Source of the DNA: a virus
Lineage: Duplodnaviria > Caudoviricetes
DNA length: 40,083 nt
Direction: 5' to 3' (one strand)
Virus record (IMG/VR): IMGVR_UViG_3300011438_000022
Span: 1 to 40,083 of that record
The notes beneath the pieces are model-generated. The model had not been told where the DNA came from. It was given only the letters and a program-made list of their open reading frames with translations, and did no database searches. Shown in pieces: positions 11,310-39,274 of this stretch. The position numbers and the translations under genes were made by a program. Numbering within the stretch: position 1 is the first letter of the stretch; every line of letters begins with the position of its first letter.

Positions 11310-12936
11310 AAACCTCCTTTCCTTGAAACTTAAATTTACAATCGTTGTCAAACCAGGTCGTCTCAATTGATTTGTGGCTTGACTTAAATGATCCAGTGGA
11401 AGTACAGAAAAGGTTTTTTCTTAATTCAAAATAATCAATTAAATAGGTAGCTAATTTGGGCCTAAAACTTGCTTTTATAATACCGTTTAAAGAAATTTCA
11501 TCATGGAAACTCTTATCGAAATTTTCCGCGTATTTCAAAATTGCCGAACCAAGACACATGAACATTAACACCTTATTAAAGTTTGTTGTTGCTTCGCTTA
11601 TTCTAAACTCGATGGTCCTTGAATGAGCAAAAAACAAATTCAGTATGTTTGTCCACATGTAGCGACTACTTCTATTCCATTTATGGCCTTGAACAGCGTG
11701 TCTTGGAAGTTTTGTAGTAAAATTGTAGTTTCTGACTCTGTAGCAAATTTGAGATTGCTTTTTACCTTGTATTATTTCTGTGCGTGTTTCTCGAACAAAA
11801 GCTTCCTCGTATTTTTCTCCTAATGGATGCCCGTTATTTAACCAAGTATAGATTTTATTAAATTCACGGATTACTTTATTTTTAAACTCCTCGTCTGTTT
11901 TAGAGGATAAAATAGTAGTAACATCTATTTCTAAGTCTGGAAGCAGGCACGCATAAATCTTTCCGTTGTCCTGAATTGAATTCGTTCTAGAAAAAGGGAA
12001 GCATTTTCTTAAAGAATCTTGGATATTATACAGGATGTGCCAAAGAGATATCACATACAGTTTATCTCTTCTTACATCCCCGAAATGAACGTGGGTTGAA
12101 CACCGATTTGAAAGTCTACATCTTTTTGAAAGTTCTTCACACATTTTTTTTACAAAGTAAAGACCTTTTCCACCTTCCATTGGGATTCCTACGTATTCAA
12201 TTCCCTCTCCCAAAGAACCGTCTCTACATGGTCTAAAACCAAGTGCTTCTCTTACCCTTTTTGGACAATGTCCCTCTTGGACTTCAAACTCGAGTCCAAA
12301 TGTAAAAGGTATATTAGGAGCAAATTTCATTAGTTTTATAGGAACTTTTTCTTTGTTATTGTCATAGAGTTCCTCTAGGGTTTGACGATAATCTCTATCA
12401 TCATCAAGGGAATAAACATTTGTTCTTTCAGTAGAAGGGATGTTTGGAAGGTTCATCTTTATTAAATCATCTGTAGAGCAGTCTGTTATTTTGTAAAAAC
12501 AGCTGTCAAAGATCGATTCTTGATACCCGTAATCAATTGCAACCTTTTCGTTTATGGCGGTTGCTCGGTTCCATTTTTTCTCGCTGAATTTTGTATCTGA
12601 CAAGCTTTTTGAAAGTGGGTCATAAATACTCTTTTTAAAAAAGGTATCTTCTTTAAACCAAATAATAACCTCTTTACTTATCTCAGAGTAGTGTCCAAAG
12701 GACCCGTCTTCTACGAGTCCTTTGTGTCCTACAAAATCTTTAGCAAACACCCATATTTTCTTAGACCAGTCAAAAATAATCTTACCTGTTGTTGTACGAT
12801 ACCAAATTTTGTCAGACATTTCAACACAAGATGCTCCTTCTTCGAAGTATTCTGATTTTCCCATCTCGTTTTTAATTTTTCTAGCTTTATTTCTTGGTAT
12901 CAGCTTTCCTTGAAAATCTTTTACTAATTCTGGCAT
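11299..12936 (-). CDS. Amidoligase-2 family COOH-NH2 ligase with an N-terminal extension
   Basis: TFGLEFE, DGSL...IEYV, CSTHVHFG and TIEFR motifs. Confidence 0.88.
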   Translation of the reverse strand: MPELVKDFQGKLIPRNKARKIKNEMGKSEYFEEGASCVEMSDKIWYRTTTGKIIFDWSKKIWVFAKDFVGHKGLVEDGSFGHYSEISKEVIIWFKEDTFFKKSIYDPLSKSLSDTKFSEKKWNRATAINEKVAIDYGYQESIFDSCFYKITDCSTDDLIKMNLPNIPSTERTNVYSLDDDRDYRQTLEELYDNNKEKVPIKLMKFAPNIPFTFGLEFEVQEGHCPKRVREALGFRPCRDGSLGEGIEYVGIPMEGGKGLYFVKKMCEELSKRCRLSNRCSTHVHFGDVRRDKLYVISLWHILYNIQDSLRKCFPFSRTNSIQDNGKIYACLLPDLEIDVTTILSSKTDEEFKNKVIREFNKIYTWLNNGHPLGEKYEEAFVRETRTEIIQGKKQSQICYRVRNYNFTTKLPRHAVQGHKWNRSSRYMWTNILNLFFAHSRTIEFRISEATTNFNKVLMFMCLGSAILKYAENFDKSFHDEISLNGIIKASFRPKLATYLIDYFELRKNLFCTSTGSFKSSHKSIETTWFDNDCKFKFQGKEVYEI

Positions 12937-15245: not shown

Positions 15246-15733
15246 AGTGTAAAATTTAATTGTTTATAATAAAGAGTAATGTCGTTAGAGGTTCTTCTGT
15301 TATTGAGTGTCATGTAAGAATTATACCCCCGGACTCTAATAAAGTCTCTTGTAGACCTAAGACTGATAAAAATAACAGAGTATCCTAAAAGGTAGAGGAA
15401 GTCCTCCAACCATTCAAAAACATTATCTGTAGCCTCCCATGAACTCATGTAAATGGTAACTGCGCCACAAAGACCTCCTACTTGCGCGTAATAAAATACA
15501 TCATTAGATACGTTGCTATGAATTACATGCAATTCAAATCTAACTTTAGAACCCCAATCTTTTACTAAAACGGAAAGTCTATGAGACAAATCTATATTAC
15601 TTTCAAGCGATCCGTCTCTTGCAATCATCTTCGCAGTAATATTTTTATGTTTTTCTCTAAATGCTTCTTCTACTTTTTCGTTTATAAAAGTATGCGTCTG
15701 AAAAGTTCTATTGTCTGGTTTTAAATTTATCAT
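15242..15733 (-). CDS. GNAT-like (C)CG-family protein, paralog 2
   Basis: GGLCG...LYLLGYSVIF...RGY...LNNRRTSNDITLYYKQL. Confidence 0.65.
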   Translation of the reverse strand: MINLKPDNRTFQTHTFINEKVEEAFREKHKNITAKMIARDGSLESNIDLSHRLSVLVKDWGSKVRFELHVIHSNVSNDVFYYAQVGGLCGAVTIYMSSWEATDNVFEWLEDFLYLLGYSVIFISLRSTRDFIRVRGYNSYMTLNNRRTSNDITLYYKQLNFTL

Positions 15734-16568
15734 ATTTTTGTGCTAGAATTTTAGGTAATTCTTTTTTATAAACTTCTGCGGTAATTTTTCCAAGAGATGG
15801 GGCGCTATTAATTTCTATGATATAAAAGTCAGGATCTTTTCTCGTTTTACTTTCTTTATCGACAGTAGATTGAACCCTGAGATCAACAGCTCCAATATCT
15901 AGTCCTACAGCATTTAGAGCCTTTTTACACTCCTCAACTATCTTGTCCCAATTAACCGGTTTATCAAAAACATTACTTTCAGTTTCTCTAAATCCAATAA
16001 AATTACCATGTTGATTCAAACTTGGCTGATACTCACAAATCCATGCGCAAGTTTCATCGTTTCGTACCCATCTCTTATTTTTAGGAGTGTCGTTTTTAAG
16101 TAATTTTCTTAAACAGTAAATTGGGCCATGATTTGTTATATGAACACGATACTCTCTTGCTCCAGAAAAAAATTGTTCTACAATGTAGTTTTCAAGACTT
16201 TTAGATTTGATAAAAGACTCGAAGTCCGCAGGAGAATCGATCTTGTAATTTCCTCGTCCTCTTGAGCCAAAGATGTTTTTAATAACTATTGGAAAATCTA
16301 GATTAATTTTTCCATTAGTAAGCCCCTTTCCACTGATCTTAAGACCAGATAGTCTGCACCAAGGCAAGTGTTTGACACTTCCTTTATCAAAAGCAGTCTT
16401 CATTTTTAACTTAGAAGAAGAATTTTGAATTGCTTCTATAGAGTTTATCTCTTTTGAATGAGGTGTTTGATTAGTAGATCCGTGGCGATAAACAGCTGAA
16501 AACGGTATGATTATCGTTTTTCTTAAAGCTTTACAGCTTGGATGTCTTGACCTTATTGCTAGTTTCAT
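15708..16568 (-). CDS. ATP-grasp ligase (RimK/YheCD-like)
   Basis: FPIVIK..FGSRGRG, EQFF...EYRVH, GLDIGAVD and IEINSAPSL. Confidence 0.9.
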   Translation of the reverse strand: MKLAIRSRHPSCKALRKTIIIPFSAVYRHGSTNQTPHSKEINSIEAIQNSSSKLKMKTAFDKGSVKHLPWCRLSGLKISGKGLTNGKINLDFPIVIKNIFGSRGRGNYKIDSPADFESFIKSKSLENYIVEQFFSGAREYRVHITNHGPIYCLRKLLKNDTPKNKRWVRNDETCAWICEYQPSLNQHGNFIGFRETESNVFDKPVNWDKIVEECKKALNAVGLDIGAVDLRVQSTVDKESKTRKDPDFYIIEINSAPSLGKITAEVYKKELPKILAQKYDKFKTRQ

Positions 16569-18588: not shown

Positions 18589-19236
18589 CTAAAAAGGAAG
18601 ATCACTAATAGGCTCACTCTGAGTATCTGCTTTTGGCAGCCTTTTAAAGTGGGCTGGATTTGATTCATCGTATTTTGGCAGTTTACTTTCGCCTTCTGGA
18701 GACTCCACAGATCTGCGATTTGGAAACTTCAATTTCAACCCTACTCCACTTTTGTCGAGCTTTGGATATTGCTCTCCAGATACAAAATATCTGGCGGTTC
18801 TTCCTACAATATAGGGTTTAACAACTTCAAGAACTTCTGAAAGACCGTTGAATTCTGTTTCTCCGTGAGTTACCATGAATTCATCTAAGGTTCCTACAGA
18901 TGTCATTATAGTTTTAAGAAAAGAAACAAATTCTTCTTGCTGGTCGTCGTTCTTTAAATAGAAACCACCATTACCAGCAACTTTACCTATCTGACCACCG
19001 GCCTGAGCATCTTCATGGGCTTCCCAACCTTCATCAGTAACAGGTTCTGTTTCCATCATAAATACAGGTCTGACATTTCCTGTGTTACGACTTTCTTCAA
19101 GAGTTATATTTCGCAGTATTAAGTTTTGTACTCCTGGTCGAATAAACTTTCCTTTCTTAAATTCCAATCTTTGTTCTGGTACCTTTCTAAAATTAAACAT
19201 ATCCTTACTTTTTAGTCCAATCCCCTGATTTGACAA
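18589..19236 (-). CDS. Single-stranded DNA-binding protein (phage type)
   Basis: Acidic C-terminal tail ending DLPF; located beside the Sak4-like ATPase and primase. Confidence 0.7.
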   Translation of the reverse strand: MSNQGIGLKSKDMFNFRKVPEQRLEFKKGKFIRPGVQNLILRNITLEESRNTGNVRPVFMMETEPVTDEGWEAHEDAQAGGQIGKVAGNGGFYLKNDDQQEEFVSFLKTIMTSVGTLDEFMVTHGETEFNGLSEVLEVVKPYIVGRTARYFVSGEQYPKLDKSGVGLKLKFPNRRSVESPEGESKLPKYDESNPAHFKRLPKADTQSEPISDLPF

Positions 19237-19543
19237 GGGGGTAGTTCGAAACGTTGCGGTTCATTTCGTAGATGGGGAGGCCGTCTACTTCAGTTTTAAT
19301 ATAACCTGCTCCGACCTCCATTGAATCTATAAATAATGCCGCCTTTTCACTTACTTCGAGTATATCACACTTTATCGTTCCTTCGCCTTTTTTAATGGCT
19401 GGATAAAATCCCAAATTATGCATTTGAAAGCCATCGACTTCTTTTTCTCCGACTTTTCGTATTGAGGCTTTTCCGTAGGCGTCTTTAATTCTATCGAAAT
19501 TATACTCGCCTTCACGAAGACTGCCATAAACAAGTATTTTCAT
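19205..19543 (-). CDS. Gamma-glutamylcyclotransferase (GGACT/AIG2-like)
   Basis: ILVYGSLREGEYN, LGFYPAI and IDSME...GY. Confidence 0.9.
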   Translation of the reverse strand: MKILVYGSLREGEYNFDRIKDAYGKASIRKVGEKEVDGFQMHNLGFYPAIKKGEGTIKCDILEVSEKAALFIDSMEVGAGYIKTEVDGLPIYEMNRNVSNYPLVKSGDWTKK

Positions 19544-22018: not shown

Positions 22019-22582
22019 TTAGATATTTTTAGGTATTTTTTTAACTGATATATTAAGTTTGTTTCCTGTTCTTCGGTTTATAAAAGAGAAAATATCCTTT
22101 TGTACTTTATTGTCAAAAGCCGGATTAACTACGAACCGTACATTCCAATCATTGTTCTTAAGGACCTTACGTTGAGCTTCATTTCCATCACAATCTGTGC
22201 AAAGCAAAAGGGAATAACCTAGTAAGGAGGCAACATCTTGACGAAGAGCATTTAGACAGGTAGCGATACCCATTCTTTGATAGCTCTTCGCAACATTAGA
22301 AGCAGTGCTTACACAAATTCCACAACAATGAGGCATTTGATAAAGCTCAAACGTAGAAACAAGATCATCTTTAAACTTTACTACATAAGAGCCTACTTGC
22401 CAGTTCTTTATGTCTTCTTTTTCTATGTCAATGATTTCTCCGATTTGAGTAAGTTCATTACTACCACGTGACCAGAAAGTAATATCGTTTGGATGAAACT
22501 TATCTATTTTTTTTCCTTTACATATGAGCGTACCAATTAAAAGAGAGTATTTTTCCAATAAATTTCTAGTTGTTAAAGCCAT
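22019..22582 (-). CDS. GNAT-like (C)CG-family protein, paralog 3, with an acyl-CoA-binding motif
   Basis: MPHCCG...V...YQRMGIA (Q/RxxGxA)...LLGYSLLLCT...N..Q.K.L....W...FINRRTGNKL; start placed at MALTT (22582). Confidence 0.75.
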   Translation of the reverse strand: MALTTRNLLEKYSLLIGTLICKGKKIDKFHPNDITFWSRGSNELTQIGEIIDIEKEDIKNWQVGSYVVKFKDDLVSTFELYQMPHCCGICVSTASNVAKSYQRMGIATCLNALRQDVASLLGYSLLLCTDCDGNEAQRKVLKNNDWNVRFVVNPAFDNKVQKDIFSFINRRTGNKLNISVKKIPKNI

Positions 22583-22587
22583 AAAAA

Positions 22588-22622
22588 TTTGGTAATTTGA
22601 ATTAAAAGTTGTATATTTAAGT
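22588..22622 (+). promoter_or_regulatory. Plus-strand promoter variant (TTTGG...GTATATTT-AAGT-ATG)
   Basis: Similar to the element at 23390-23424; divergent from the 22582 gene. Confidence 0.5.
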
Positions 22623-22689
22623 ATGATTACTATGAGTTGCGGCAAGGGCCGCGGGTGTAACTACGAAGGAGAGCCCGAACTAAGATTTT

Positions 22690-27005: not shown

Positions 27006-28679
27006 TTATTTGTTTAAATTTGACTTTATTTCGTCTAAAGTCCAGTCTTTTAGTAATTTTCCGTCTCTGAAGATTTCTTTGAGTTCGCCTTTCTCTTGAT
27101 CTTCCCAGCTTACTTCTTCTAAAACTTCATAGTGATCGTGATAAAATCTATTACTCATAGGTTCGACTTGACCTATACTAACAACTCTTAATAGTCCCTT
27201 TGAGCTTTTTTTTGTTCCATCGTCTGTTACAGGATCCTTGAAAATATTTATCTCTTTTCCATTAACTACCACATAGGTTGCTTTCATTGCCAGTCCACAA
27301 GTATCACGAGTGATGTGTTGATAAGTAAAAGAACCAATCCCAAAAATACATTGAGAGACAAAACCTTTATCATGTAGTCTTTTACAGATATTTTCAGCTA
27401 CTTTAAGACTAATTGAATCACCATAGATTGCTCCAATATGTGAATCAAGTAGTTTAAACCCTTTATTAGTATTAGTACCTCCAAATAAATCCCAGAGACA
27501 CTCTATTACTCCTTTAAGCTCAGCTTTACTCACTTCACCTCTTTTATTTAAAGCGTCTTTGCGATAACCATCACCACCATAAAGAAAATAACGACCGTTC
27601 CATTCAAGTACTTCTGGACTCTCTCCATTATACTTGTTCCAATAAGGATTACTATACCAATTATCAAAGGCGCGGCATGACCAATCTTCTGTTGCGTCAG
27701 GATCACTGCACGTAAGATGCATTATTTTATCTGAATTCCAACCACAAATAATATCTGCCGGATCTCCAGAATCCGGCCTAATTACTAGTTTTCCGTCTCG
27801 TCCAAGGATTTCATCCTTAAGTGCTGGTAAAATGCGTTCTAAGACGTCCCAGAGGCTCCAGGTATCGCTCACTACCGAAAGGAAGCCACTTGGATATACT
27901 TCGGTAATAAGTCTTCTAAAGGTCTCCAATTCGTTCTCAGAGCCACCAGCGCACATAACTGAATGTTCAGTAGCTGGAATTGATCCTCCAATAAATCCAG
28001 TTGCATTGTAATATTTTTGAAGAAATGGAATAGCTGGTATTGTATCGGTTCCTGAAAAGGATAAAAGATGCCCCGCTCCACTCAGACAAGCCGATTCAAA
28101 TGAGCTCATTCCTCTGAATGAAAAATCATGCCCTTGAAAAGGGACTACTGCTCTCGGAAATCCCGTCTTTTCTCCCCATTTATCAAATATTCTACGATAT
28201 TCTTTAGCTATAGTGGCAGAGGTGGAGGCTTGCCAAATACAAGCACTAAGTATTGTCTCAAGGAAATTTGTAACCCAATAAAACTCTGGCTTCGTGTTAT
28301 AAATTGTGAGACATGGAACTCTCATATCAACTTGAGACCCTTCTGGTAGTGCTTTAATTACGATAGGTATATATCCTAAATCGTGCAAAGACAAAATATG
28401 ATCATAGGTTGGTAAGTCTGATCCAAGGGATGTTTTTATGAGTTCTTTGTACTCGGCAAGTATCTCTTCTCTTGATCTTGAAAAGAAGTTCCTATTAAAA
28501 TAATCAATTAGATATTCTTTAATAAAGTACTGAGGTCCAAAAAGCACCATCTTATCTACTCCTTCAATTCTTGATTTTCTCGGCGTGAGATTAGAGTAGA
28601 CAAATGTTGTTCCTTTTGGATACTGGAAAGGATGGCCGACTTTGTAAAAGTCACATAAAAAGAGAGGGTTGATGTCCAT
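27006..28679 (-). CDS. Nicotinamide phosphoribosyltransferase-like protein (probable Namat of NARP1)
   Basis: CDFYKVGHPFQYP, HDFSFRG, GTDT, PATEHSVM, SVVSDTW, VIRPDSGDP, IYGDSI and KDPVTDDGTKKS. Confidence 0.93.
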   Translation of the reverse strand: MDINPLFLCDFYKVGHPFQYPKGTTFVYSNLTPRKSRIEGVDKMVLFGPQYFIKEYLIDYFNRNFFSRSREEILAEYKELIKTSLGSDLPTYDHILSLHDLGYIPIVIKALPEGSQVDMRVPCLTIYNTKPEFYWVTNFLETILSACIWQASTSATIAKEYRRIFDKWGEKTGFPRAVVPFQGHDFSFRGMSSFESACLSGAGHLLSFSGTDTIPAIPFLQKYYNATGFIGGSIPATEHSVMCAGGSENELETFRRLITEVYPSGFLSVVSDTWSLWDVLERILPALKDEILGRDGKLVIRPDSGDPADIICGWNSDKIMHLTCSDPDATEDWSCRAFDNWYSNPYWNKYNGESPEVLEWNGRYFLYGGDGYRKDALNKRGEVSKAELKGVIECLWDLFGGTNTNKGFKLLDSHIGAIYGDSISLKVAENICKRLHDKGFVSQCIFGIGSFTYQHITRDTCGLAMKATYVVVNGKEINIFKDPVTDDGTKKSSKGLLRVVSIGQVEPMSNRFYHDHYEVLEEVSWEDQEKGELKEIFRDGKLLKDWTLDEIKSNLNK

Positions 28680-29079
28680 TTTTTAATTTTTTGTATTTTA
28701 AGTATAAATCTAGAGCTTCTTCCAAAATATCTAAAGCTTCTAGTAAACCTGCTCTATCGTCAAGATAAATATTAGCATAGACTTTTCCATTATTACCATA
28801 AGGAAGTGGTATAGGGTTGAAGTTAATGCCATCAACATCTATCCCCTTTTCATGACATATAGCCACCATTTCAGGGTATCTGGAAGTTCCTGCGGCGGTG
28901 TTAATTATTAAACAACAACCAGCTTTTTGACACTCTTTTAAGAGTTTAATTACTCTTCCAGAGTAATCAGGCACTATTCCCTTATGCGGAACTAGAGTAT
29001 CATCAAAATCAACAGCTATTATTATTCTTTCGTGTTCACACCATTCATTGTAGAGTCTTTCGATGTAGGGATTGGTCAT
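28651..29079 (-). CDS. Capless HAD-superfamily phosphatase
   Basis: Motif I IAVDFDDTL, motif II INT and motifs III/IV KVYANIYLDDRA. Confidence 0.85.
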   Translation of the reverse strand: MTNPYIERLYNEWCEHERIIIAVDFDDTLVPHKGIVPDYSGRVIKLLKECQKAGCCLIINTAAGTSRYPEMVAICHEKGIDVDGINFNPIPLPYGNNGKVYANIYLDDRAGLLEALDILEEALDLYLKYKKLKNGHQPSLFM

Positions 29080-29936
29080 ATTATGTCATAAATTTTTAAA
29101 AAGTCTTTTGGTAATATACATAAGCCTAATGCCAAATCCCAGTCCTCGTTTCGACTATTAGTAACAAAAATCTTTTCAAATCTTTCACTGAGGGAAAGAA
29201 ATAAATTACTAAATATTCCATGAGAGATCGCTAAATAATGCTCCCCTCTATAGCCGTTCCTTTTAAGTTCGTCTGAAAGTGCAGTAAAAGTTCTTCCTCC
29301 TACACAGATGTCATCAATTATTAAAATATCTTGTAAGCTTTTTTTCTTGGCTTTTGGAACAGTTAAAGTTAATTCACCTGTTTGATGATTTCTAGATTTA
29401 CTAGCTGTTATTATATCTCCTCTGAACTGAAGATCATTGATCAGTTTAAAGATTTTCTTATAAGCACCTGCATCCGGACTAACTATTGTCCAATCATGCA
29501 TGTCTTTTCCTTCTCTTGGAGTGTTTAACACTGACCGAATGAACTCTAAATTTGATTGTACGTAGACATTTTTTAATAAAGCTGGAGTGACATCTGAGTG
29601 TGGATCAAAAATAATGTACTCATCTACATTTAAGGAATTTAAGATCTTACAAATGGTCTTAAGAGAAAAACACTCGCCTATTCCAAAATCTCTATCCGCT
29701 TGAGAGTAGGGAAAATAAGGAATTCTTACTTTTACCTGCCTATGTTTAAAGTCTTTATGAAGCGTATCTACAACTATGCAAAGTAGAATTATATCGTCAG
29801 AGTTGTTTAATCGCGTTACTACTTCAAAAGAGGTGGCACAAGTAGGGTCTAACTTAAAATTCCACTCACCTCCAGGAAACCTGGTTATTTTATAATCCAT
29901 AAATTCCCCAATGCCGTTGGTTAAATCTATTTTCAT
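29076..29936 (-). CDS. Ribose-phosphate pyrophosphokinase-like protein (probable Adps of NARP1)
   Basis: FPGGE, PYFPYSQADR, DPHS, VSPDAGAYKK and PRPP loop IIDDICVGGRTF; start placed at the ATG at 29936. Confidence 0.92.
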   Translation of the reverse strand: MKIDLTNGIGEFMDYKITRFPGGEWNFKLDPTCATSFEVVTRLNNSDDIILLCIVVDTLHKDFKHRQVKVRIPYFPYSQADRDFGIGECFSLKTICKILNSLNVDEYIIFDPHSDVTPALLKNVYVQSNLEFIRSVLNTPREGKDMHDWTIVSPDAGAYKKIFKLINDLQFRGDIITASKSRNHQTGELTLTVPKAKKKSLQDILIIDDICVGGRTFTALSDELKRNGYRGEHYLAISHGIFSNLFLSLSERFEKIFVTNSRNEDWDLALGLCILPKDFLKIYDII

Positions 29937-29941
29937 AATGT

Positions 29942-30121
29942 TCAAATTTTATGTTTACGCCAAAGATCTTGCAGAAATCCAACTAGTAATGCGGTTAGGC
30001 ATAATGGCCAGAGACCCCACCAGACAAGTGGAAGCATCCAGTCGCCGTCTGTATCTATTTTTCTTACAGATCCGTTTATGACAGTATAAACTAGACCGAT
30101 TAGTATGTATATTAGTAACAT
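29942..30121 (-). CDS. 59-aa two-TM membrane protein (MLLIYILIGLVYTVING...WMLPLVWWGLWPLCLTALLVGFL...), not in the ORF track
   Basis: Translated by hand; lies between the terminator and the PRS-like gene and has a Y..IG / WP membrane-hairpin pattern. Confidence 0.75.
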   Translation of the reverse strand: MLLIYILIGLVYTVINGSVRKIDTDGDWMLPLVWWGLWPLCLTALLVGFLQDLWRKHKI

Positions 30122-30601: not shown

Positions 30602-30817
30602 TTATTTTTTAAGAAGACTTTCTAAATCATCTTTCTTTTTCTGCAAATTTTTTACAGTATTCTCCATTTTAGTGAGAAGGAGTTTAAAATCTTCTATAGA
30701 GCTTTCATCAAATTCTCCGTTCGAGTACTTCGCCCAGTCTAAGTGACCGGTTAAAACACTCAAAAGAGAAAGTTGGTCTTTAATTGAATTAAGTTCAAAA
30801 ACTGAAGGTATTATCAA
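30602..30817 (-). CDS. Small hypothetical protein with a coiled-coil C-terminus
   Basis: TTG start overlapping the AAA ATPase stop. Confidence 0.55.
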   Translation of the reverse strand: MIIPSVFELNSIKDQLSLLSVLTGHLDWAKYSNGEFDESSIEDFKLLLTKMENTVKNLQKKKDDLESLLKK

Positions 30818-31692
30818 GATTCTTGAGTGATTTGAGTTTTATATGATTCAGTAGCTTTTTCGAGCGCATCTTTGAGTGGAATACTGTATGCTATCATATC
30901 TAAGAGTATATGTTTTGCATAATCTATAGGAAGATTAGATTTATGAACTTCATGAATTATTTCTCCCACTTCAAGATTATCTTTGACACGTTTTAACTGC
31001 CCCTCAGTCAGACCTTTTAATTCGTGAAGTATAAATCCTTCTATTACACTTCTGTCTAATTGGTCGAATTCTTCAATAATTGAAATTCTTGACGGCCTGT
31101 TTCTTAAAGAGACAGGAATCTTGTTAATATAGTTTGTCGTGGTCATAAAGCAAACATTTTCAATTTGTCTAAACCCGTCCAAAATACTCCCTAAGAGAGA
31201 TGCATTGCTGGCATATCCGACAAATTCATGTATTTCTTCAAATATTACAACAACCGGAGTTGTTTTTTCTTTTCCTCGAGCTGCCTTGATAAGGTGATGA
31301 ATTAAGCCCAAATCACTGTGATCCTGAATATAAATGCAAATAGCTCCATGCAGTTTAACAAGAGCCTTACAAACGTATTTTATAAAAGAAGACTTGCCTG
31401 TTCCAGGTCTTCCATAAAAAAGGCATCCTAAAAGATGGTTAAACCCTAAGGAAGAATAAAGCTCTATAGTATCTTTTTCAAAAAATTTCATAATCTTGGC
31501 TTCAATCCCTTTATACTTTCCTTCGAAAGGTATTAACTTCCCTGTTGGCTTGTATGTCCTAAAATATGAGCTTTTAGACATTCCGTCTGAGTGAACGCCT
31601 ATTTCGTAAAAGCCTGGAGGCAAATCTACTACTGTTTCCTCTCCGTCAAACACAGGAGAAGGGTAAAAATTATTATTATATTTTTTAAACAT
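30814..31692 (-). CDS. AAA+ ATPase (single domain)
   Basis: Walker A GRPGTGKS, Walker B VIFEE, LDG, sensor TTN and NRPSR arginine finger. Confidence 0.9.
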   Translation of the reverse strand: MFKKYNNNFYPSPVFDGEETVVDLPPGFYEIGVHSDGMSKSSYFRTYKPTGKLIPFEGKYKGIEAKIMKFFEKDTIELYSSLGFNHLLGCLFYGRPGTGKSSFIKYVCKALVKLHGAICIYIQDHSDLGLIHHLIKAARGKEKTTPVVVIFEEIHEFVGYASNASLLGSILDGFRQIENVCFMTTTNYINKIPVSLRNRPSRISIIEEFDQLDRSVIEGFILHELKGLTEGQLKRVKDNLEVGEIIHEVHKSNLPIDYAKHILLDMIAYSIPLKDALEKATESYKTQITQES

Positions 31693-31693
31693 G

Positions 31694-32311
31694 TTATTTT
31701 TTTTGAAGTACGTAATACTGTTCTGTTTTAATTTTGGTAAACGTTTTTCTTACGAAGTTATTAGCTTCAGCCATTTTCTTGAGTCCTGGAGTAGCACAGT
31801 TTTTTGAGTCCTTTCTAAAATACTCTGTCGATGACATGTGACACGCAGGAGATACAAAATAAGCTCCGGATTTCATAGCTTTAAGTATTTTTATTTCCAG
31901 AGATAGTTCAAGTTTAAAATCGTGAATGGGGCAATACATATAAATAATATCGTATTTCATGTAGGCATTGAAGTCGAATGCATCAATATATTGCGTATCC
32001 GTCGTTAAGGAAAAATGCTCAAGATTTTGGTCATACTCTATTCCAACACCTTTTAATCCAGCTGAATTAGCTAAATGTACTATATTACCTATTCCTGCTC
32101 CTACATCTAAGAAATTTTCTGCTCCCTTGTTTTTTAATTTTACCAGGAGTTTAAACAAAGAAACATAATCGTAGAAAGGAACAAACTCATAATAACTATT
32201 ATTTTTCCTTAGTTTTTTCCCTTCTAAAAGCTTAATTCTTTCTCTTGCCCGTCTTAATTGTTGAACAAGTTGACCATATCCTTCTAATAATTTAATTGTT
32301 GTTTGGTCCAT
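31694..32311 (-). CDS. Class I SAM-dependent methyltransferase
   Basis: FLDVGAGIG, GIE, DAF and YDIIYMYCP; start placed at MDQTT. Confidence 0.8.
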   Translation of the reverse strand: MDQTTIKLLEGYGQLVQQLRRARERIKLLEGKKLRKNNSYYEFVPFYDYVSLFKLLVKLKNKGAENFLDVGAGIGNIVHLANSAGLKGVGIEYDQNLEHFSLTTDTQYIDAFDFNAYMKYDIIYMYCPIHDFKLELSLEIKILKAMKSGAYFVSPACHMSSTEYFRKDSKNCATPGLKKMAEANNFVRKTFTKIKTEQYYVLQKK

Positions 32312-32312
32312 A

Positions 32313-33101
32313 TTATAAAGATTTAAAAGTTCTTTCAATTTGTTTCACAAAATTTATAAAGTCAGGATCGAATCTTATATCTTTCCTCCAAGCTAACCCT
32401 TGCTTAGCAAGGTTAGTTTCATACTTTATAACTGCTCCTGGAATCTTATTGCCTTCTGAATCTTTATCATACCCTAAAATCCATGCTTTATCACTAAGAG
32501 CAAGGGAGGGTTCTAAAATATGCGACGAAATAATAACTGTGTTAAATTCATCTAACTTGGCTACTTTATTTATTACATCGCAGAGCTTATCGATTGCTTT
32601 GAGATCCAGTCCACTAAACGGTTCATCGAACAAAATAAAATGTTCCGAACAGAGTAATTGTTGTACGATTGCTGCTCTTTGACGTTGACCGCCGCTCAAT
32701 TGAGCTGGGTATTTTGATTTATGTTCAAAAAGATTAAATTCATTTAAGTAAAATTCAATCTTGGGTGTGTCTGAAGACACTAGCTTTAAATTCGAGATTA
32801 AGGTTCTATGTTGAAATAAAGGATATTTCTGGTCTACAAGCCCCACTAAGCCAGCTTTCACTGGTTTTTGCCCGGGACCAAGAAGTATTTTACCAGAGGT
32901 TGGTTGCACGAGACCTGCAATCATTTTCATGAGTTGTGTTTTTCCTACTCCAGATTCTCCTATGAGTGTAACTACTTGACCTGTAGTTTCTTCTCTTAAA
33001 ATATCTTTTATTTCGAAACTGATATCCCTTAATATCAAATTACTACCAAAACTTAAACTCACTGAGTCTAAAGTTAGTAGAGTTTGTCCTAGTTGGTACA
33101 T
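32313..33101 (-). CDS. ABC transporter ATP-binding subunit (TauB/SsuB-like)
   Basis: Walker A GESGVGKT, Q-loop, LSGGQ signature, Walker B ILFDEPF and H-loop SSH. Confidence 0.95.
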   Translation of the reverse strand: MYQLGQTLLTLDSVSLSFGSNLILRDISFEIKDILREETTGQVVTLIGESGVGKTQLMKMIAGLVQPTSGKILLGPGQKPVKAGLVGLVDQKYPLFQHRTLISNLKLVSSDTPKIEFYLNEFNLFEHKSKYPAQLSGGQRQRAAIVQQLLCSEHFILFDEPFSGLDLKAIDKLCDVINKVAKLDEFNTVIISSHILEPSLALSDKAWILGYDKDSEGNKIPGAVIKYETNLAKQGLAWRKDIRFDPDFINFVKQIERTFKSL

Positions 33102-33337
33102 TATAGTTGATCAAGGTCTTTTAATGGTTCTCCTGACATTGAAACAAGAGCTTTAATTAGTTGATCCCTTTTTTTTATAGCTATTGCTTCTGATTCAAAC
33201 CACAACTCCATAGTCTGACCATTTTTGAGTCGAATTGAAAGATAAGATTGAATAGGATTTAATTTATAGGTAAAGATTTTACTTATAGTACAAATTTGTT
33301 TTACATCTATAACGTTTTCACTAATGATTACTATCAT
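33101..33337 (-). CDS. Small beta-rich hypothetical protein (MIVIISENVIDVKQI...)
   Basis: ORF track 33101..33409; the ATG at 33337 is the likelier start. Confidence 0.6.
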   Translation of the reverse strand: MIVIISENVIDVKQICTISKIFTYKLNPIQSYLSIRLKNGQTMELWFESEAIAIKKRDQLIKALVSMSGEPLKDLDQL

Positions 33338-33548
33338 GGCTGGCGTATTTATTAGGTGAAAAAAAGACTCCTTTTGATAATCCTGGAAGTGTGTACACAT
33401 GAAACTCAAATAGTCTCATGCACTGGCCACATTGAAATAAAAGTGTCGTGTTATCGTCTGTAAGAGATCTGGAGCCGGTAGCATTACAAGCTGGGCATTT
33501 ATCAACCAAATCTTCAGTTGCAAATATTTGGGGTTTAACTATATTCAT
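33321..33548 (-). CDS. Zn-ribbon protein
   Basis: CPAC...CGQC. Confidence 0.65.
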   Translation of the reverse strand: MNIVKPQIFATEDLVDKCPACNATGSRSLTDDNTTLLFQCGQCMRLFEFHVYTLPGLSKGVFFSPNKYASHDSNH

Positions 33549-33559
33549 AAGTTTAAAAT

Positions 33560-33766
33560 TTAATCATTTCTTGTTTTTATTGCTGCTACAATAAGAAAGA
33601 TTGTTGCAAACATACTTGCGTAGAAACAGGTCATCCAGCAATCATGTGTTGGAAGTTTCTGACAAAACAATATTAGTCCAATCAATGCAGAAATCAAGAC
33701 GATTGATAAGGAAACAAGAAATATTGCAAGTAGGAAAAACATGAAAAGTTCTTTAAAAGTTTTCAT
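33560..33766 (-). CDS. Small two-TM membrane protein
   Basis: Two long hydrophobic runs; ATGA overlap with the permease stop. Confidence 0.7.
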   Translation of the reverse strand: MKTFKELFMFFLLAIFLVSLSIVLISALIGLILFCQKLPTHDCWMTCFYASMFATIFLIVAAIKTRND

Positions 33767-34536
33767 TTTTTAACGTTTAAAACGGTGTACGGAAATAGGA
33801 AATACTTTAATTTTGTAAGAAATACGTCAAGTAAAATACCAGTCAAGAGAATATATATCTGAACTGCATAAACATATTCAAATTTAAACCATTTATTTAA
33901 ATCTGATAGAATTACTCCTATTCCTCCTTGAGACTTACAAAGATTTTCAACTGTCGCAAGCATCATCCAGGCAATAGCAAAATTTTGTCTTATTGATTCA
34001 AAGACTTTATCCAATTTCCCCACTATAATTACTTCCCAAAGTGTTTTCCATTGATTTAGTTGTAATGTTCTTGCGTAGTTAATCTCATCTTGAGTAGTAC
34101 TGGTTACTACTGAGTAAATGGAATCTACTAGAAATGCACTAATTCCAAATGTCAGAAGCATTACTTTCTGTTCGTCCACATTTGAACTTAGTTTCATGAA
34201 TAAAAATGAAATTCCTACTGTCGGAAGAAATCTGAACTTAGTTAAATAATAAGAAAAGGATTTAAAGAGTGGAATTGTTGCTATATAAGCTATAAACATT
34301 GAAATAATAGCAGCTATACCTATTCCTTTAAAACAAAGACCTATTGAGATTATAAAATGTCTTACCAGATCTTTGGTAGATATTAAATCATAAGCGGCTT
34401 CCGCAATTTCTCTTGGGCGCGGGAGAAGTGTTGAGTTAGCTAAAGACCAAAAGAGTATAATAGTTACTAAAGTTCCGATATTAACAATTGTTCGATCTCT
34501 CGAAGACAAATGTTCGTTTGGTGTAAGTAATTTCAT
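33763..34536 (-). CDS. ABC transporter permease (TauC/SsuC-like)
   Basis: About 6 TM segments, LLPRP, EAA-like DEINYARTL and AIAWMMLATVE...GGIG. Confidence 0.9.
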   Translation of the reverse strand: MKLLTPNEHLSSRDRTIVNIGTLVTIILFWSLANSTLLPRPREIAEAAYDLISTKDLVRHFIISIGLCFKGIGIAAIISMFIAYIATIPLFKSFSYYLTKFRFLPTVGISFLFMKLSSNVDEQKVMLLTFGISAFLVDSIYSVVTSTTQDEINYARTLQLNQWKTLWEVIIVGKLDKVFESIRQNFAIAWMMLATVENLCKSQGGIGVILSDLNKWFKFEYVYAVQIYILLTGILLDVFLTKLKYFLFPYTVLNVKK

Positions 34537-34568
34537 AATTTACTTTCTTGAATTTTACTCTAAAATAC

Positions 34569-34641
34569 AGAGAGGGGGAAGATTCGAACTTCCGACCCCT
34601 TCATTAATAGTCAAGTGCTCTATACACTGAGCTACCCTCTC
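34569..34641 (-). tRNA. Aberrant tRNA or tRNA-like element, anticodon AUU (nominally Asn)
   Basis: 73-nt cloverleaf: GAGAGGG/CCCTCTC acceptor, GCTC/GAGC D stem, CTATTAA anticodon loop, GGAAG-TTCGAAT-CTTCC T arm; no GG in the D loop, G:G mismatch in the anticodon stem, no encoded CCA. Confidence 0.8.
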
Positions 34642-34656
34642 TGTTTGAACTTAAAG

Positions 34657-36456
34657 TTATTTTCTACCGAGTTTTATTTCCACTCTTCTATTCTTTTGTC
34701 GACCGTCGCTGGTTGAATTATCAGCTATAGGTACGCCCGCGCCGTAGCCTTTAGATCTGATTCGATCTGGGTTCTCGCTATCTGTTTTAGATAAAATGTA
34801 GTGTCTAACTGCATCAGCCCTTGCTTTTGAAAGAGTTATGTTAGCACTTGGATTTCCTGTATTATCGGTGTGTCCTGCTACTTCTACAAGCAAATTATCT
34901 GCGACAGTTATTTGATTTGCTACGTTATCTAAAATTACAAAAGAACTTGGTCGAATGTTCGCTGAACCTGTTTCAAACTCAATCGAATAAGATCTGTCAC
35001 CAACTACCTCCTTAATCTGATCATTAGAAGCGAATTGTGGCTTAGAAGCTGTCCCCATTAAGGACTTATTTCTAAGGTAAACAGCTTTAAAATAAGACCA
35101 ATCAGTCACTTCGTCATAACTAGGAAACTCTTTTAACAGCTCAGGGTAAGATTCTTTACAAATGTTTCCAAATGTATTATATACAGTTTTATATTTATCT
35201 GAACCACTTATTCCTATGTAAGCTGCTACATCAGCTAAATTAAAAACTCTTGAGCCTCCTATTTTAACAGTGTTTCCATCTTCATCGTCGAAATCATATC
35301 CAATATAGGCCTTAGAATAGTCTTCTTCAGTCATATTGTTGTCTGCGTAAACTAGTTGTGAGACTTTACAAGCTATTTGAAGAGCCTCATTATGACTTTT
35401 TACCTGATCTCCTCCTTTACCGATTGCTTCTATTAGATTTTCGACAAGTTTACGATTGTCTTGAGCCCATTTCTTAATGAATATAATAGCGTTACCCATT
35501 TGAGATCCATAATCAGCTGTGGAAGCGGCAGTAACAAGTCCACCCTTTTCCTTAACAGCAACGAGATCGCCTGGGAACCAAGTAGCCACTCCAGTGCATG
35601 ATATTGTAGTATCTTTATCTGTAAGTTTACCGTTCCTAACTATTTTTAAAGTAACCTTTTGACCTGATACATAAAACTTGGCTGCTTCCATATAATCATC
35701 ATTAGGTGCTGACACAAAATTAACCTTTTTAGGATCATAAGTCCCATTATCATAATTAATATCCCACCCATTTTGTTGACATTTCATGACTGCAATGTTC
35801 CAATCACCATCTCTAATTACGGTACAAGTTAAACTTCCCCTTGCATCTTTCACGTATTTTGGCTTTAGAAGCCATTTATCTTCTCCAAAAGACGCCCCTC
35901 CAAAAGTTAGTATCTGTGCTACATATTCGTCTCCGAAGTCTTTCTTGAGCCTTGTATTGAGTCCTGCAAGGTAATTTGGACATCCGTCGCCCATCCAACC
36001 TATAAAATGACAACCTTTAGAGGGATTAGCTTCTCCTGAATGTAGAGCTTCTGCGAACCCGTATAAGTCTTCAGCTTGCTTAGCACAAGAATTTTGTACA
36101 TCTAATCTGACGTTTAAGTTTAATTCTTGAGCCAGCGACCCAACTGAGGTCTGTTTTCCCCCTATAGCGTACATTATTCCCATTTGAGCATTCCATCCCA
36201 TTAATTCTCCTCGAATCTCGGGCCCCTCCATGGAAGCTTGAGTATTAAATTCTGGAATATTTCTGAAAGGTGCGTTTGCATTTTTATCGTATGCTAGTGG
36301 AGGTAATCCTGTAGCTTTAGTAGTTACAACTACTATTTTGGCTTTTTTTGGAAAAAACGTATTATAAGCGAGCCTGCCTCCAAGGAACGAACCTGCTATT
36401 ATAACTAAGACGAGAAATTGTCCTCCCCTTGTCATTTCTTTACCGAGTAGTTTCAT
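34657..36456 (-). CDS. Membrane-anchored substrate-binding protein fused to an OmpA-like peptidoglycan-binding domain
   Basis: N-terminal TM; C-terminal FETGSA...GHTDNTG...N..LSKARA..V...GYG...P...N....GR..NRRVEI; central domain assigned from the ABC context and the SFGEDK motif. Confidence 0.88.
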   Translation of the reverse strand: MKLLGKEMTRGGQFLVLVIIAGSFLGGRLAYNTFFPKKAKIVVVTTKATGLPPLAYDKNANAPFRNIPEFNTQASMEGPEIRGELMGWNAQMGIMYAIGGKQTSVGSLAQELNLNVRLDVQNSCAKQAEDLYGFAEALHSGEANPSKGCHFIGWMGDGCPNYLAGLNTRLKKDFGDEYVAQILTFGGASFGEDKWLLKPKYVKDARGSLTCTVIRDGDWNIAVMKCQQNGWDINYDNGTYDPKKVNFVSAPNDDYMEAAKFYVSGQKVTLKIVRNGKLTDKDTTISCTGVATWFPGDLVAVKEKGGLVTAASTADYGSQMGNAIIFIKKWAQDNRKLVENLIEAIGKGGDQVKSHNEALQIACKVSQLVYADNNMTEEDYSKAYIGYDFDDEDGNTVKIGGSRVFNLADVAAYIGISGSDKYKTVYNTFGNICKESYPELLKEFPSYDEVTDWSYFKAVYLRNKSLMGTASKPQFASNDQIKEVVGDRSYSIEFETGSANIRPSSFVILDNVANQITVADNLLVEVAGHTDNTGNPSANITLSKARADAVRHYILSKTDSENPDRIRSKGYGAGVPIADNSTSDGRQKNRRVEIKLGRK

Positions 36457-36476
36457 AATTTTTGTTTTAAAAGTTA

Positions 36477-36857
36477 TTATTCCTCAATTCTATTAGCTAA
36501 TTCTTCTTGATACCATTTTCTGAAAGCATCATGGTCTAAATGAATTAGCCATACTTTAATAGTGTTGCCGGTTTTTGGATTCACGTCTGAATTTGTCTGA
36601 AATAAATTACCACACACTTTCACTTTTTCTATTTCTGCTGCAAGTAGTTCGCCTCTTGAGGCGCTTTCTTCTTTTACAACATCAGAAAAAAGTACAAAAG
36701 CTGCTGGTCTTGGATTAGCTTTATGATAGAGATGATTGGCCAACGAAAAGAGCGTTCTGCTAGCCGACTTTCTAGGTAAGTGGTGCATCTCAACGACTCC
36801 ACAAGACACATAAGATTTGTTAAATTGTGCTTGTTCTGAATTAATAAATTCTCCCAT
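36477..36857 (-). CDS. GNAT-like (C)CG-family protein, paralog 4 (divergent)
   Basis: VSCGVVEM...FVLFSD...VNPKTGNTIKVW. Confidence 0.55.
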   Translation of the reverse strand: MGEFINSEQAQFNKSYVSCGVVEMHHLPRKSASRTLFSLANHLYHKANPRPAAFVLFSDVVKEESASRGELLAAEIEKVKVCGNLFQTNSDVNPKTGNTIKVWLIHLDHDAFRKWYQEELANRIEE

Positions 36858-36874
36858 TGTATTTAAGTTTTAAA

Positions 36875-36930
36875 GTAAAAAGGGGGCTAAAAGTTCACAA
36901 CCGGGCTTGAATCCCAGACTCCGCCCCCTT
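36875..36930 (-). terminator. Terminator-like extended hairpin with an internal stem-loop
   Basis: AAGGGGGC...GCCCCCTT followed by TTT, enclosing CTGGG-ATTCAAG-CCCGG. Confidence 0.6.
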
Positions 36931-37014
36931 GAATTAAGTGGTACGAGTTAAAAACGAGCCATCCTTGAACTTTATTCTAAAGTTCTGCGTAGAAGTTTGT
37001 TTCAAATTTCAAGT

Positions 37015-37092
37015 TTAGTTAAAAAGGTTCTCGATTTTATTTTTAATGAAGTAGACTATGACACCGCCTACTATAAATCCAAAAATAAACAT
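37015..37092 (-). CDS. 25-aa single-TM peptide (MFIFGFIVGGVIVYFIKNKIENLFN), not in the ORF track
   Basis: ATG with an A-rich leader 11 nt after the upstream stop; hydrophobic GxxxG helix followed by basic residues. Confidence 0.55.
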   Translation of the reverse strand: MFIFGFIVGGVIVYFIKNKIENLFN

Positions 37093-37103
37093 GTTTTTAA
37101 TTT

Positions 37104-38057
37104 TTAGTCTAATAATCCTGTTTTCTTTTTGATGGGTTGATAAGAGAGGGTTTCACTTGGAAGCTTGTTAAAAACTGAATAATCTGCTGGAAGCAAAAGT
37201 TTTTCATCCTTAAGATTATTAAGTGCTGCAAGACCTTCTTCAGTCCTAAGATTTTTTTCAGTGTTAATTCCTTTCATCATGTCTTTAGACTTATTTTCAA
37301 AGTCTTCAATATAGGCCATCTTCTGGCTTACATTTTCTTCGAGGGCCTTAAGAGATTCTTCATAAAGTCTTTCTGCTTCAGAAGCTTCAGCAAACGATGA
37401 GGCTTGTTTTAATGCTTTTACCATTTCTCTTAAATTAACATATTCTTCTTCCTTTCTTTCGATTTCATGTCCTAGGCCGTCAATTGAATAGCCCCAGTTT
37501 TCGCTTAGCTCATTTAAAAACTTATCATTTTCTTCAAGCTTAGCGTAAATGGGACGATAAAGATCAAGCGATTGCTTATCTCCTTGAAGATAGGTTCCAT
37601 ATAGAGCTGCTTGTTTTTGATCTCCAGCTTTAAGGGCTGCTTGGCCCAATCGCCTATTCTTTTCTACTTCTCCAGTCAATTGTTCCATTTTTCTGCCAAG
37701 CTTGATTTTTTTCCCTTCAAGCGCTACTTTTACTGTATCTAAATTTCTTTTCTTTTTTTGAAGGTATTCTAAATATCCTTTCATGATAGACAGAGGATCC
37801 ATTTTCACGAACACGCTTACAATTCCACGGCAGATTCTTTTATATTGCATCCACAAGAAAGTCTGATTTGAAATTATGAAAAGAGTTAGAAAGGCTAATG
37901 GTACTCCTAATCCAACAAGCCAATAGACGTTTTTCATCAAATCTATTAGAGTAGGAGCGATATAGTTCACAAGCTTTATTCCTCCCCAAATAAGTCCTGC
38001 GAAGATGGCAATTCTAACGAATTTCTCACCTCCTGTAGTTTTATTCATTTGTATCAT
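37104..38057 (-). CDS. Membrane-anchored coiled-coil protein, PspA/IM30/ESCRT-III-like
   Basis: Two N-terminal TMs, then DPLSIM...long heptad helices with an ALKAGDQKQAA hairpin resembling PspA ALxxGxEdLA. Confidence 0.65.
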   Translation of the reverse strand: MIQMNKTTGGEKFVRIAIFAGLIWGGIKLVNYIAPTLIDLMKNVYWLVGLGVPLAFLTLFIISNQTFLWMQYKRICRGIVSVFVKMDPLSIMKGYLEYLQKKKRNLDTVKVALEGKKIKLGRKMEQLTGEVEKNRRLGQAALKAGDQKQAALYGTYLQGDKQSLDLYRPIYAKLEENDKFLNELSENWGYSIDGLGHEIERKEEEYVNLREMVKALKQASSFAEASEAERLYEESLKALEENVSQKMAYIEDFENKSKDMMKGINTEKNLRTEEGLAALNNLKDEKLLLPADYSVFNKLPSETLSYQPIKKKTGLLD

Positions 38058-38673
38058 TTAAGTAAGTTTGAATTTTTTTAATTCGACTGTTTATGCTTTC
38101 ACAAGCTTTAGTAAACTCCTGTTCAAGTGCAGCACCTCTATAAGAGATTTTAAATGAATTTGTCGTCGCGTTTGCCTGGATTTCTGCAATTTTAGCGTTG
38201 TTTTCTCCGATTTTTCTTGCTAGTGTTTCATTTTCTTTAGCTAAAGTTTTAACCTCGGCAAGAGGAATTTCGACAAGATTTTTTTTACTCTTTGCAATGT
38301 CTTCATCTTCAGCCTTCTTTTTTTCCTCAATATTCTCAAGGTAAAACCTGGCTGAGTTAATAAGTTGACTCATACTTATTCCTTGAGCTTTAAAAGAGTT
38401 AAAAGAAGTAATGAATTTTTGTTGCTCCTCAACTGGGAGGGAAGAATTAAGCTGAAGTATTTTACAAAACTCCAGATAATCTGGGCCCGATTGGTTATAC
38501 TCCTCCATTACTTTTTCGAAGAAGCCGGTCAAAGAACTATCAGGAGCAACTGATTGTTCAAGCTTGAATTTTGTTTCAAAATTCATCAATGAAGAATCTT
38601 TTGATTCTTCAAGTATTGGTTTAGTTTTAGGAGCAGCTTTTGGAGGCTCCTTATCCTTAAAAAAAAGTCCCAT
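38041..38673 (-). CDS. Helical/coiled-coil partner protein
   Basis: MGLFF start, GPDYLEF motif and C-terminal coiled coil; coupled to the PspA-like gene. Confidence 0.7.
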   Translation of the reverse strand: MGLFFKDKEPPKAAPKTKPILEESKDSSLMNFETKFKLEQSVAPDSSLTGFFEKVMEEYNQSGPDYLEFCKILQLNSSLPVEEQQKFITSFNSFKAQGISMSQLINSARFYLENIEEKKKAEDEDIAKSKKNLVEIPLAEVKTLAKENETLARKIGENNAKIAEIQANATTNSFKISYRGAALEQEFTKACESINSRIKKIQTYLNDTNE

Positions 38674-38695
38674 AATTTTTTCTATTTTTTGTTAG

Positions 38696-39274
38696 TTAAT
38701 CATCATCATCCCCATAATAACTTTCCTCCTCTTCCTCATCATATTCATACTCCTCGTCCTCATATGCAAACTCTCCATCATCTTCCTCTTTCTTTACCGT
38801 TTTCTTTCTTTTAGGTGTTTTTTTCTTCCCTTCCTTGAATTTTGTATCAAAATTCTTACTTGAACGTTCAAGAATGGAGCTCTTTATTTCACTTAAATCC
38901 ATTTCTGCTAAGGCTTCGGTAATCTCTTTTTCTGTTTTAGAGAGACTGGCGGGGTCATAAACATTTCGATGTGTATCATAACAATATTCACCACCGCTTA
39001 AAATTCCTCTGATTTTCAGCCTATTTACTATTTTAGAAGCTTCCCTTAAAGTAATAGAAGGGTGGTAAGTTTTTAATAGTAAATAAAAGTCTTCTTTTGT
39101 TCGTCTTTTGTTGGACTGGCATTGAATGTGTCCTTTTTCATCATAAGTTTGAAATCTTCTGATAAAGAAGTTATGAATTAAATGTGAAAGGTTTCTTATT
39201 TTAGCATTTGTGAGGGCAAACCTTAAAGGAGTAAATCCTTCTAATCTTGCTTGTATTTGTTCAAAAGTAGGCAT
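38696..39274 (-). CDS. Hypothetical protein with a Lys-rich patch and a highly acidic tail
   Basis: KKKTPKRKKTVKK followed by EEDDGEFAYEDEEYEYDEEEESYYGDDDD. Confidence 0.7.
   Translation of the reverse strand: MPTFEQIQARLEGFTPLRFALTNAKIRNLSHLIHNFFIRRFQTYDEKGHIQCQSNKRRTKEDFYLLLKTYHPSITLREASKIVNRLKIRGILSGGEYCYDTHRNVYDPASLSKTEKEITEALAEMDLSEIKSSILERSSKNFDTKFKEGKKKTPKRKKTVKKEEDDGEFAYEDEEYEYDEEEEESYYGDDDD

Follow-up and report, generated by a model that had tools for sequence, protein, structure and literature searches.

Operons that combine PspA with a complete solute importer are already on record. The passages of Ravi et al. (2024; PMC11237479) that deal with them describe bacterial operons encoding PspA, a transmembrane (TM)-anchored Snf7 protein, AAA+, an ATP-binding cassette (ABC) ATPase, a permease and a PBPb+OmpA protein, in the order PspA > SIG+PBPb+OmpA > permease > ABC ATPase > SIG+TM+Snf7 > tandem AAA+ (example, OGG56892.1), and present related operons as ordinary bacterial envelope-stress loci. 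In huge phages, main-text passages of Yuan & Chen (bioRxiv 10.64898/2026.10.24.761521) report complete ABC systems beside 15 PspA genes, read there as mitigating membrane stress, and in both papers the passages concerned interpret the linkage as membrane remodelling together with solute transport. According to the pertinent part of a third paper, the "host-interface island" of a Flavobacterium jumbophage has different genes (PMC13573597). A literature search retrieved no experimental test of the module. Here we describe a cassette of this kind in IMG/VR record IMGVR_UViG_3300011438_000022, a contig from an uncultured phage that was analysed as a whole (40,083 bases, the complete virus record; hereafter, the window) and that carries, at positions 32313-38673, an entire ABC importer next to a predicted TM-anchored PspA-like protein. 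Since the two papers already describe this type of gene set, in bacteria and in huge phages, the surprise of finding it is low; what the window copy adds is a defined five-gene core, from which the nearby AAA+ and NARP1 genes can be excluded.

The cassette contains five intact open reading frames (ORFs), all of them, like every window gene given below by position, on the minus strand. In transcription order they are ORF1, a two-TM protein, a receptor fused to OmpA, a permease and an ABC ATPase, as read from a list of the ORFs of both strands with domains assigned by Pfam; an earlier note on this DNA, made from the letters alone, had described five intact genes in this order, and correctly so. 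The receptor gene (34657-36456) codes for a 599-amino-acid (aa) NMT1/SsuA-like binding protein with a hydrophobic segment at residues 12-30 and a C-terminal OmpA domain (residues 494-590, E 2.5e-18). Residues D531 and R546 of this domain, presumably the Asp/Arg pair that binds diaminopimelate in the cell wall, are invariant in 13/13 aligned sequences, and the GHTD...LSxxRA motif of OmpA-like peptidoglycan-binding domains is present in 39 of 44 relatives. The binding domain resembles Atlas clusters named NMT1+OmpA with TM scores of 0.75-0.76, predicted models being compared on both sides, and Pfam NMT1 or NMT1_2 gave weak matches in two of 13 receptor relatives. An NMT1/SsuA-type periplasmic binding fold is thus predicted, in agreement with the TauA/NMT1-like fold proposed in the earlier note. 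The permease (33763-34536) is of the type I ABC importer class and TauC/SsuC/NtrB-like, matching BPD_transp_1 above its cut-off (E 4.2e-9); its best NCBIfam matches are SaoP, TauC, NtrB and SsuC, all under their own cut-offs. The ATPase (32313-33101; ABC_tran, E 1.1e-23) retains, as read from its translation, an intact Walker A, LSGGQ signature, Walker B/D-loop and H-switch; among its relatives, Walker A and LSGG are each found in 40 of 43.

The gene at 37104-38057 codes for a 317-aa protein, here called 37104, with hydrophobic segments at residues 16-34 and 44-62, the TM hairpin being flanked by basic residues on its cytoplasmic side. The predicted structure (mean predicted local distance difference test score, pLDDT, 70.5) shows two TM helices, a helix at residues 65-85 and a long hairpin at 88-223 whose helices (88-143 and 147-223) are modelled at high pLDDT, a feature that is not specific on its own; the two or three short trailing helices are of low confidence, with residues 226-263 and 284-317 largely at pLDDT <50. 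In a Foldseek search with this model the top 12 rows were all Vipp1, with alignments of ca. 220 columns and a best E value of 9.5e-4. The VIA comparison placed Vipp1 (Z 12.1, 156 residues aligned, 4.5 Å) and PspA 4whe (Z 11.8, 120 aligned, 2.1 Å) at the top, level with unrelated coils, residues 65-220 aligning on residues 2-157 of the Vipp1 chain, so that helix 65-85 falls at the Vipp1 N-terminus. The family is large (805 clusters at E ≤ 1e-10), and among its members PspA_IM30 is by far the commonest Pfam family, matched by 22 of 142 relatives at E ≤ 0.01 (best, 7.3e-8). These results support, with moderate confidence, a PspA/Vipp1 (ESCRT-III) fold for 37104. The profile of the family found no match in 301 genomes of the phylum Myxococcota, in three metagenome-assembled genomes (MAGs; loci L001-L003) or in plasmids, a search that left out Bacteroidota, whereas it was positive in four of five viral controls, which had themselves helped to build it; a cellular reservoir may still exist.

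The first gene of the cassette, ORF1 (38041-38673), codes for a soluble coiled-coil protein of 210 aa and is the constant upstream partner of the PspA-like gene. It has no significant match in Pfam, PHROG or NCBIfam, a sequence search recovered only the protein itself, and its profile found generic coils at best in the PDB. Its model (pLDDT 79.7) has helices at residues 51-58, 66-75, 83-96, 101-150 and 155-206, that is, a predicted disordered N-terminus, a small three-helix domain and a C-terminal helical hairpin. The small helices precede the hairpin (101-206), which stops four residues before the end, and the model has no hinge and helices 4-5 after it, as there are in PspA/Vipp1/ESCRT-III. 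Foldseek returned nothing for ORF1 at E ≤ 0.001 and no PspA/Vipp1 among the rows shown, which does not exclude families not listed there; its Atlas look-alikes are unnamed clusters, mostly labelled Bacteroidota. In VIA, PspA 4whe (Z 8.7, 127 aligned, 3.5 Å) scored no better than many unrelated hairpins, the best of which reached Z 8.8, and a profile-profile comparison with the 37104 family gave a probability of 29.5%. A prediction of the complex of ORF1 (residues 44-210) with the cytoplasmic portion of 37104 (64-290) gave no answer (0.00 against a mark of 0.32, with controls that did not fold) and was not used. A second PspA/ESCRT-III-like protein is therefore not supported, the hairpin being terminal, the VIA score shared with generic hairpins and the profile link weak, and ORF1 appears to form a separate, unnamed family that is not PspA-like on current evidence. 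The "PspA/ESCRT-III-like pair" of the earlier note, for which it had suggested a Foldseek check of both proteins, thus survives in one half only: according to the Foldseek, VIA and Pfam results, there is one PspA-like protein plus one constant partner.

The set recurs well beyond the window. Among 49 viral loci fetched with a receptor profile, three pairs of which are near-duplicates and some of which are cut by contig ends, the permease was found in 47, the ATPase in 46, the TM-anchored PspA-like gene in 43 and ORF1, by profile, in 37; 37 of the 49 have all five genes, in one and the same order, and by eye a diverged ORF1-like gene lies upstream in five further distinct loci. This gene order recurs in phage records from GenBank (462 and 735 kb), and the loci that bear the cassette span 27-64% GC and belong to many unrelated large phages. 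In 25 of 43 loci, stretches of >250 bases have been inserted between the transporter genes with the four coding partners retained, and the set therefore appears to be kept as a unit. The cassette is thus a real, intact and conserved module, and the proposal that this locus holds a complete ABC transporter, carried by a phage and coupled to a TM-anchored PspA-like protein, is borne out.

No other neighbouring family recurs in more than five of 44 loci, antisense shadows aside, and the core of the module is therefore exactly five genes. A single-domain AAA+ ATPase of 292 aa (30814-31692; Pfam AAA, E 3e-13) does lie two genes downstream of the cassette, as had been noted, but it has a homologue in the flanks of only four of the 49 loci and no detectable role in the module. 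Farther on, 27006-29945 holds PRS-like and NAMPT-like genes, a NARP1-type pair, with a HAD-like gene between them, as assigned by Pfam; across the flanks of the 49 loci, NAMPT was found three times, PRS twice and both together once. The closest relative of the window, L004, an independent viral contig of 23 kb whose receptor is 73% identical, has the ATPase, the methyltransferase, the 71-aa ORF and HAD, and continues to NinG/NinB as in the window, and lacks AAA, PRS and NAMPT between these same flanking genes, keeping only the HAD-like gene at the NARP1 site. The AAA+ and NARP1 genes are incidental neighbours and not part of the module.

Several observations indicate that the cassette has long resided in phages and is not fresh host contamination. 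A tree of the receptors, built by a quick method from 53 rows that excluded duplicates and fragments, places that of the window in a clade of 12 rows (support 99) made up solely of viral and metagenome records, among them terminase-bearing records of 482 and 362 kb, and apart from three MAG proteins; overall, a match to one terminase family of Pfam was found in 13 of 46 cassette-bearing records. Nearly all long ORFs of the contig are on the minus strand, GC content is even (31-38%), and a PHROGs scan identified a single-strand replication arm with PolA, DnaB, primase, Sak4, NinB, NinG, RusA, dUTPase and a phiEco32-like ligase cluster. Codon use in the cassette matches that of these phage replication genes (relative synonymous codon usage, r = 0.96), which fits long phage residence but would equally fit a host of like composition. 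The runs that contain the contig are freshwater sediment metagenomes. In the possible source run, read depth was flat (7.0-8.7) over 26-40 kb, another run spans the stretch from PRS through AAA and the methyltransferase to the ATPase, and no joint was listed within 29-40 kb in the read-depth and assembly check, so a chimeric assembly is unlikely; two runs with a small share (X3 and X5) covered the stretch patchily. A promoter scan performed at chance level (25 found, 29.2 expected), and no RNA dataset was listed as containing positions 31000-39000, which has no bearing on expression.

Our favoured reading, to which we give a probability of about one half, is that the cassette is a phage-run importer of a small polar solute coupled to a PspA/Vipp1-like scaffold, keeping the host envelope fed and sealed during infection. 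The receptor would be anchored in the membrane by its N-terminal helix and on peptidoglycan by its OmpA domain, and would pass the solute to the permease and ATPase for ATP-driven import; judging from the permease and receptor families, the best guess for this solute would be the nitrate/sulfonate/pyrimidine class. Protein 37104 may polymerise on the cytoplasmic face of the inner membrane, with ORF1 as its putative soluble adaptor or regulator, and the benefit to the phage could be a sealed and supplied host envelope through a long infection. If this is correct, large phages use an ESCRT-III-like scaffold and an importer of their own to keep up, actively, the inner membrane and the solute supply of the host.

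Several results weigh against this reading. Protein 37104 itself has no Pfam PspA_IM30 or Snf7 match above the curated cut-off, its best Foldseek E value is just 9.5e-4, and its VIA Z scores are tied with unrelated coiled coils and fall under the caution line of ca. 13 for helical proteins; a profile of 142 sequences of its family, compared with the PDB, recovered no Vipp1 or PspA chain by sequence, the best matches being CENP-Q (E 0.003) and CHMP1B (E 0.007). A profile search with the receptor domain found no sequence match in the PDB, and hence no ligand can be named. In the Ralstonia phage RsoM2USA, ORF1 and the TM protein are retained although this transporter is not close by, and loci L045, L057 and L078 carry the transporter without a detected TM-PspA-like gene, although L057 starts ca. 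200 bases upstream of the transporter and so cannot be counted as lacking it; coupling of the transporter and the PspA-like gene is therefore not obligatory. Finally, the PHROGs scan detected no virion gene among 55 ORFs scanned on the contig, a 40-kb piece with the replication arm, so that the confirmation of virion genes called for in the earlier note was not obtained. Nor was any close viral relative of the contig's PolA found, and virion genes can therefore not be linked to it through relatives.

Among other explanations, the ABC unit might be a trans-envelope sensor or motor, in which the receptor, tethered to the wall, senses a ligand or the condition of the peptidoglycan and ATP turnover controls assembly of the PspA-like scaffold, replacing the AAA+ partner of the bacterial operons. 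The receptor is doubly tethered, by a membrane helix and an OmpA domain, which plain importers seldom need, and the scaffold gene accompanies the transporter in 43 of 49 loci as against four for AAA+. The bacterial operons in the passages of Ravi et al. (PMC11237479) carry a tandem AAA+ that the phage version is without. Against it, the permease and the ATPase are of the usual type I importer kind, nearest to the taurine/sulfonate/nitrate families and not of FtsEX/MacB type, and nothing in our analysis indicates a contact between ABC unit and scaffold; we consider such a sensor unlikely, although less so than the alternatives that follow. PspA limits proton leak, and the module could thus serve in counter-defence, shielding the cell from membrane-depolarising abortive defences, or in superinfection exclusion, blocking the entry of a second phage's DNA; that it is held by many unrelated large phages, over 27-64% GC, would fit. 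For either job, however, an importer is superfluous, no anti-defence family recurs beside the module across 44 loci, and the related bacterial operons are, in the passages cited, ordinary envelope-stress loci (PMC11237479), so this role ranks lower still. A bolder combination, to which we give slightly less credit again, is that large phages build a trans-envelope machine in which the wall-tethered receptor and the ABC ATPase take the place of a Vps4-type AAA+ and drive or trigger an ESCRT-III-like polymer anchored in the membrane, ORF1 serving as adaptor, and that this machine reseals or reshapes the inner membrane, defeating depolarising defences or excluding competitors.

The presence of NARP1 genes close to the cassette had led to the suggestion that the transporter supplies them with imported nicotinamide or a related NAD/pyrimidine precursor. 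The NMT1-like fold of the receptor agrees with this, and NAMPT genes are not rare in these phages: a match anywhere in the record was found in 13 of 46 cassette-bearing records and in nine of the 19 near-complete ones, PF04095 matches 3/3 GenBank jumbo records, and in two further records NAMPT lies within ca. 10-16 kb of the cassette. According to the part of Osterman et al. that covers their distribution (10.1101/2024.02.11.579819), NARP1 plus NARP2 occur in 5.4% of sequenced phages; the share of NAMPT among the near-complete records is higher, but this baseline is not matched for genome size, and an enrichment in cassette-bearing phages does not follow. On the other side, NAMPT and PRS are scarce in the flanks (3/49 and 2/49), ten of the 19 near-complete records have no NAMPT match, and in the L004 fragment, which carries the transporter, the same flanking genes enclose neither PRS nor NAMPT. 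NARP1, moreover, rebuilds NAD+ from intracellular ADP-ribose and nicotinamide, as described in the same source (10.1101/2024.02.11.579819), and so needs no import, and the PspA-like gene would be left unexplained. The suggestion is thus weakened, and we regard it as improbable, below all the preceding ones. Least credible by far is that the stretch is cellular or chimeric, a host operon misjoined to a phage contig or freshly captured by it. The lack of a detected virion gene on the 40-kb contig and the existence of related receptor-permease-ATPase trios in bacterial MAGs would be compatible with it, but the single-strand phage replication module, the even GC and matching codon use, the even depth and bridging pieces, the synteny with the independent contig L004 through to NinG/NinB and the position of the receptor in a viral clade all argue against it.

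The composition of the module varies in some of the loci. In the cultured phage RsoM2USA (L006:7263-10140), the genes after ORF1 and the TM-PspA-like gene code for an anchor-like protein of 122 aa and a receptor of 300 aa, TAXI-like by eye, and no ABC genes were detected in the locus. In a 374-kb phage record (L038:9830-11179), the receptor has 449 aa and no OmpA motif, and ORF1 appears as two short ORFs. L079 and L080:10001-10459 retain just a 158-aa piece of the receptor, and none of the other module genes was detected in their flanks. An ORF1-like gene, recognised by eye and without a profile match (L003:11255-11939, minus strand), faces the transporter trio on the opposite strand in a MAG of Myxococcales. 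Being only part of the genome of an uncultured phage, the window contig is a poor starting point for experiments, and RsoM2USA is a cultured phage in which the two-gene core of ORF1 and the TM-PspA-like gene could be studied.

The interleaving of the cassette genes with small elements, noted earlier, is also confirmed: four small ORFs and a tRNA-Asn gene, all outside the module, lie between them, and, given the insertions in 25 of 43 loci, such interleaving is common for the module. The ORFs at 33560-33766, 33321-33548 and 33101-33409 code for a 68-aa two-TM protein, a 75-aa Zn ribbon and a 102-aa product, and none of the three has a homologue beyond the window's own record among loci L001-L025. 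The tRNA-Asn (34568-34642; ARAGORN, and 58.1 bits in Rfam) has the anticodon ATT; its anticodon stem includes one non-standard pair, its CCA is not encoded, and none of 11 loci scanned has a tRNA at this position. An A at the wobble position is rare among Asn tRNAs; the phage replication genes favour AAT over AAC (123 to 75). The fourth ORF (36477-36857, 126 aa) has no homologue in the other fetched loci, only in the window's own record (L013). It shares CG and C-terminal N[KRP][RK][TS]xN motifs with the ORFs at 22019-22645, 15242-15733 and 7538-7972, and these four small ORFs are possibly a diverged paralogous family; the label of CG-family paralog given to it before holds at the level of motifs, but a profile of the other three fails to recover it. 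Inside one of these, ORF 22019-22645, a form present in two runs lacks 45 bases at 22097-22143 and has loose ends on both sides, which suggests a strain variant or a small repeat. Elsewhere on the contig, the phiEco32-like cluster (7965-16568) comprises a COOH-NH2 ligase, two class I glutamine amidotransferases, an amidoligase, a class II amidotransferase and an ATP-grasp protein, and a gamma-glutamyl cyclotransferase (19205-19543) lies farther from it.

In comparison with the described systems, the cassette shares with the operon in the passages of Ravi et al. a gene set with a receptor-OmpA fusion, a permease, an ABC ATPase and a TM-anchored ESCRT-III-like protein, and 37104 can be likened to their TM-Snf7 by description alone, that is, by a TM anchor and an ESCRT-III-like fold. 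Unlike that operon, it is phage-borne and lacks a soluble PspA, no PspA_IM30 match being found among the window proteins scanned, as well as the tandem of inactive and active AAA+, and its TM protein comes first, led by the ORF1 coiled-coil gene. The phage form, with ORF1 and a two-TM PspA-like gene and neither soluble PspA nor AAA+, thus differs in content from the published bacterial example. The huge-phage loci of Yuan & Chen likewise have PspA with a binding protein, an ATPase and a permease alongside; in its main-text passages, that report does not mention an OmpA fusion, a TM anchor on PspA or ORF1. As in PspA/Vipp1, 37104 is predicted to have an H0-like helix, a long hairpin and, at low confidence, trailing short helices, but the fold is preceded by two TM helices, identity is 9-18%, and the match is below the Pfam cut-off. 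In its permease and ATPase families and in the predicted fold of its receptor, the transporter is like the NitT/TauT-family importers (TauABC, SsuABC, NrtABCD and NMT1/THI5-like receptors), from which it departs in that all NCBIfam scores are below cut-off and in that its receptor is fused to a peptidoglycan-binding domain.

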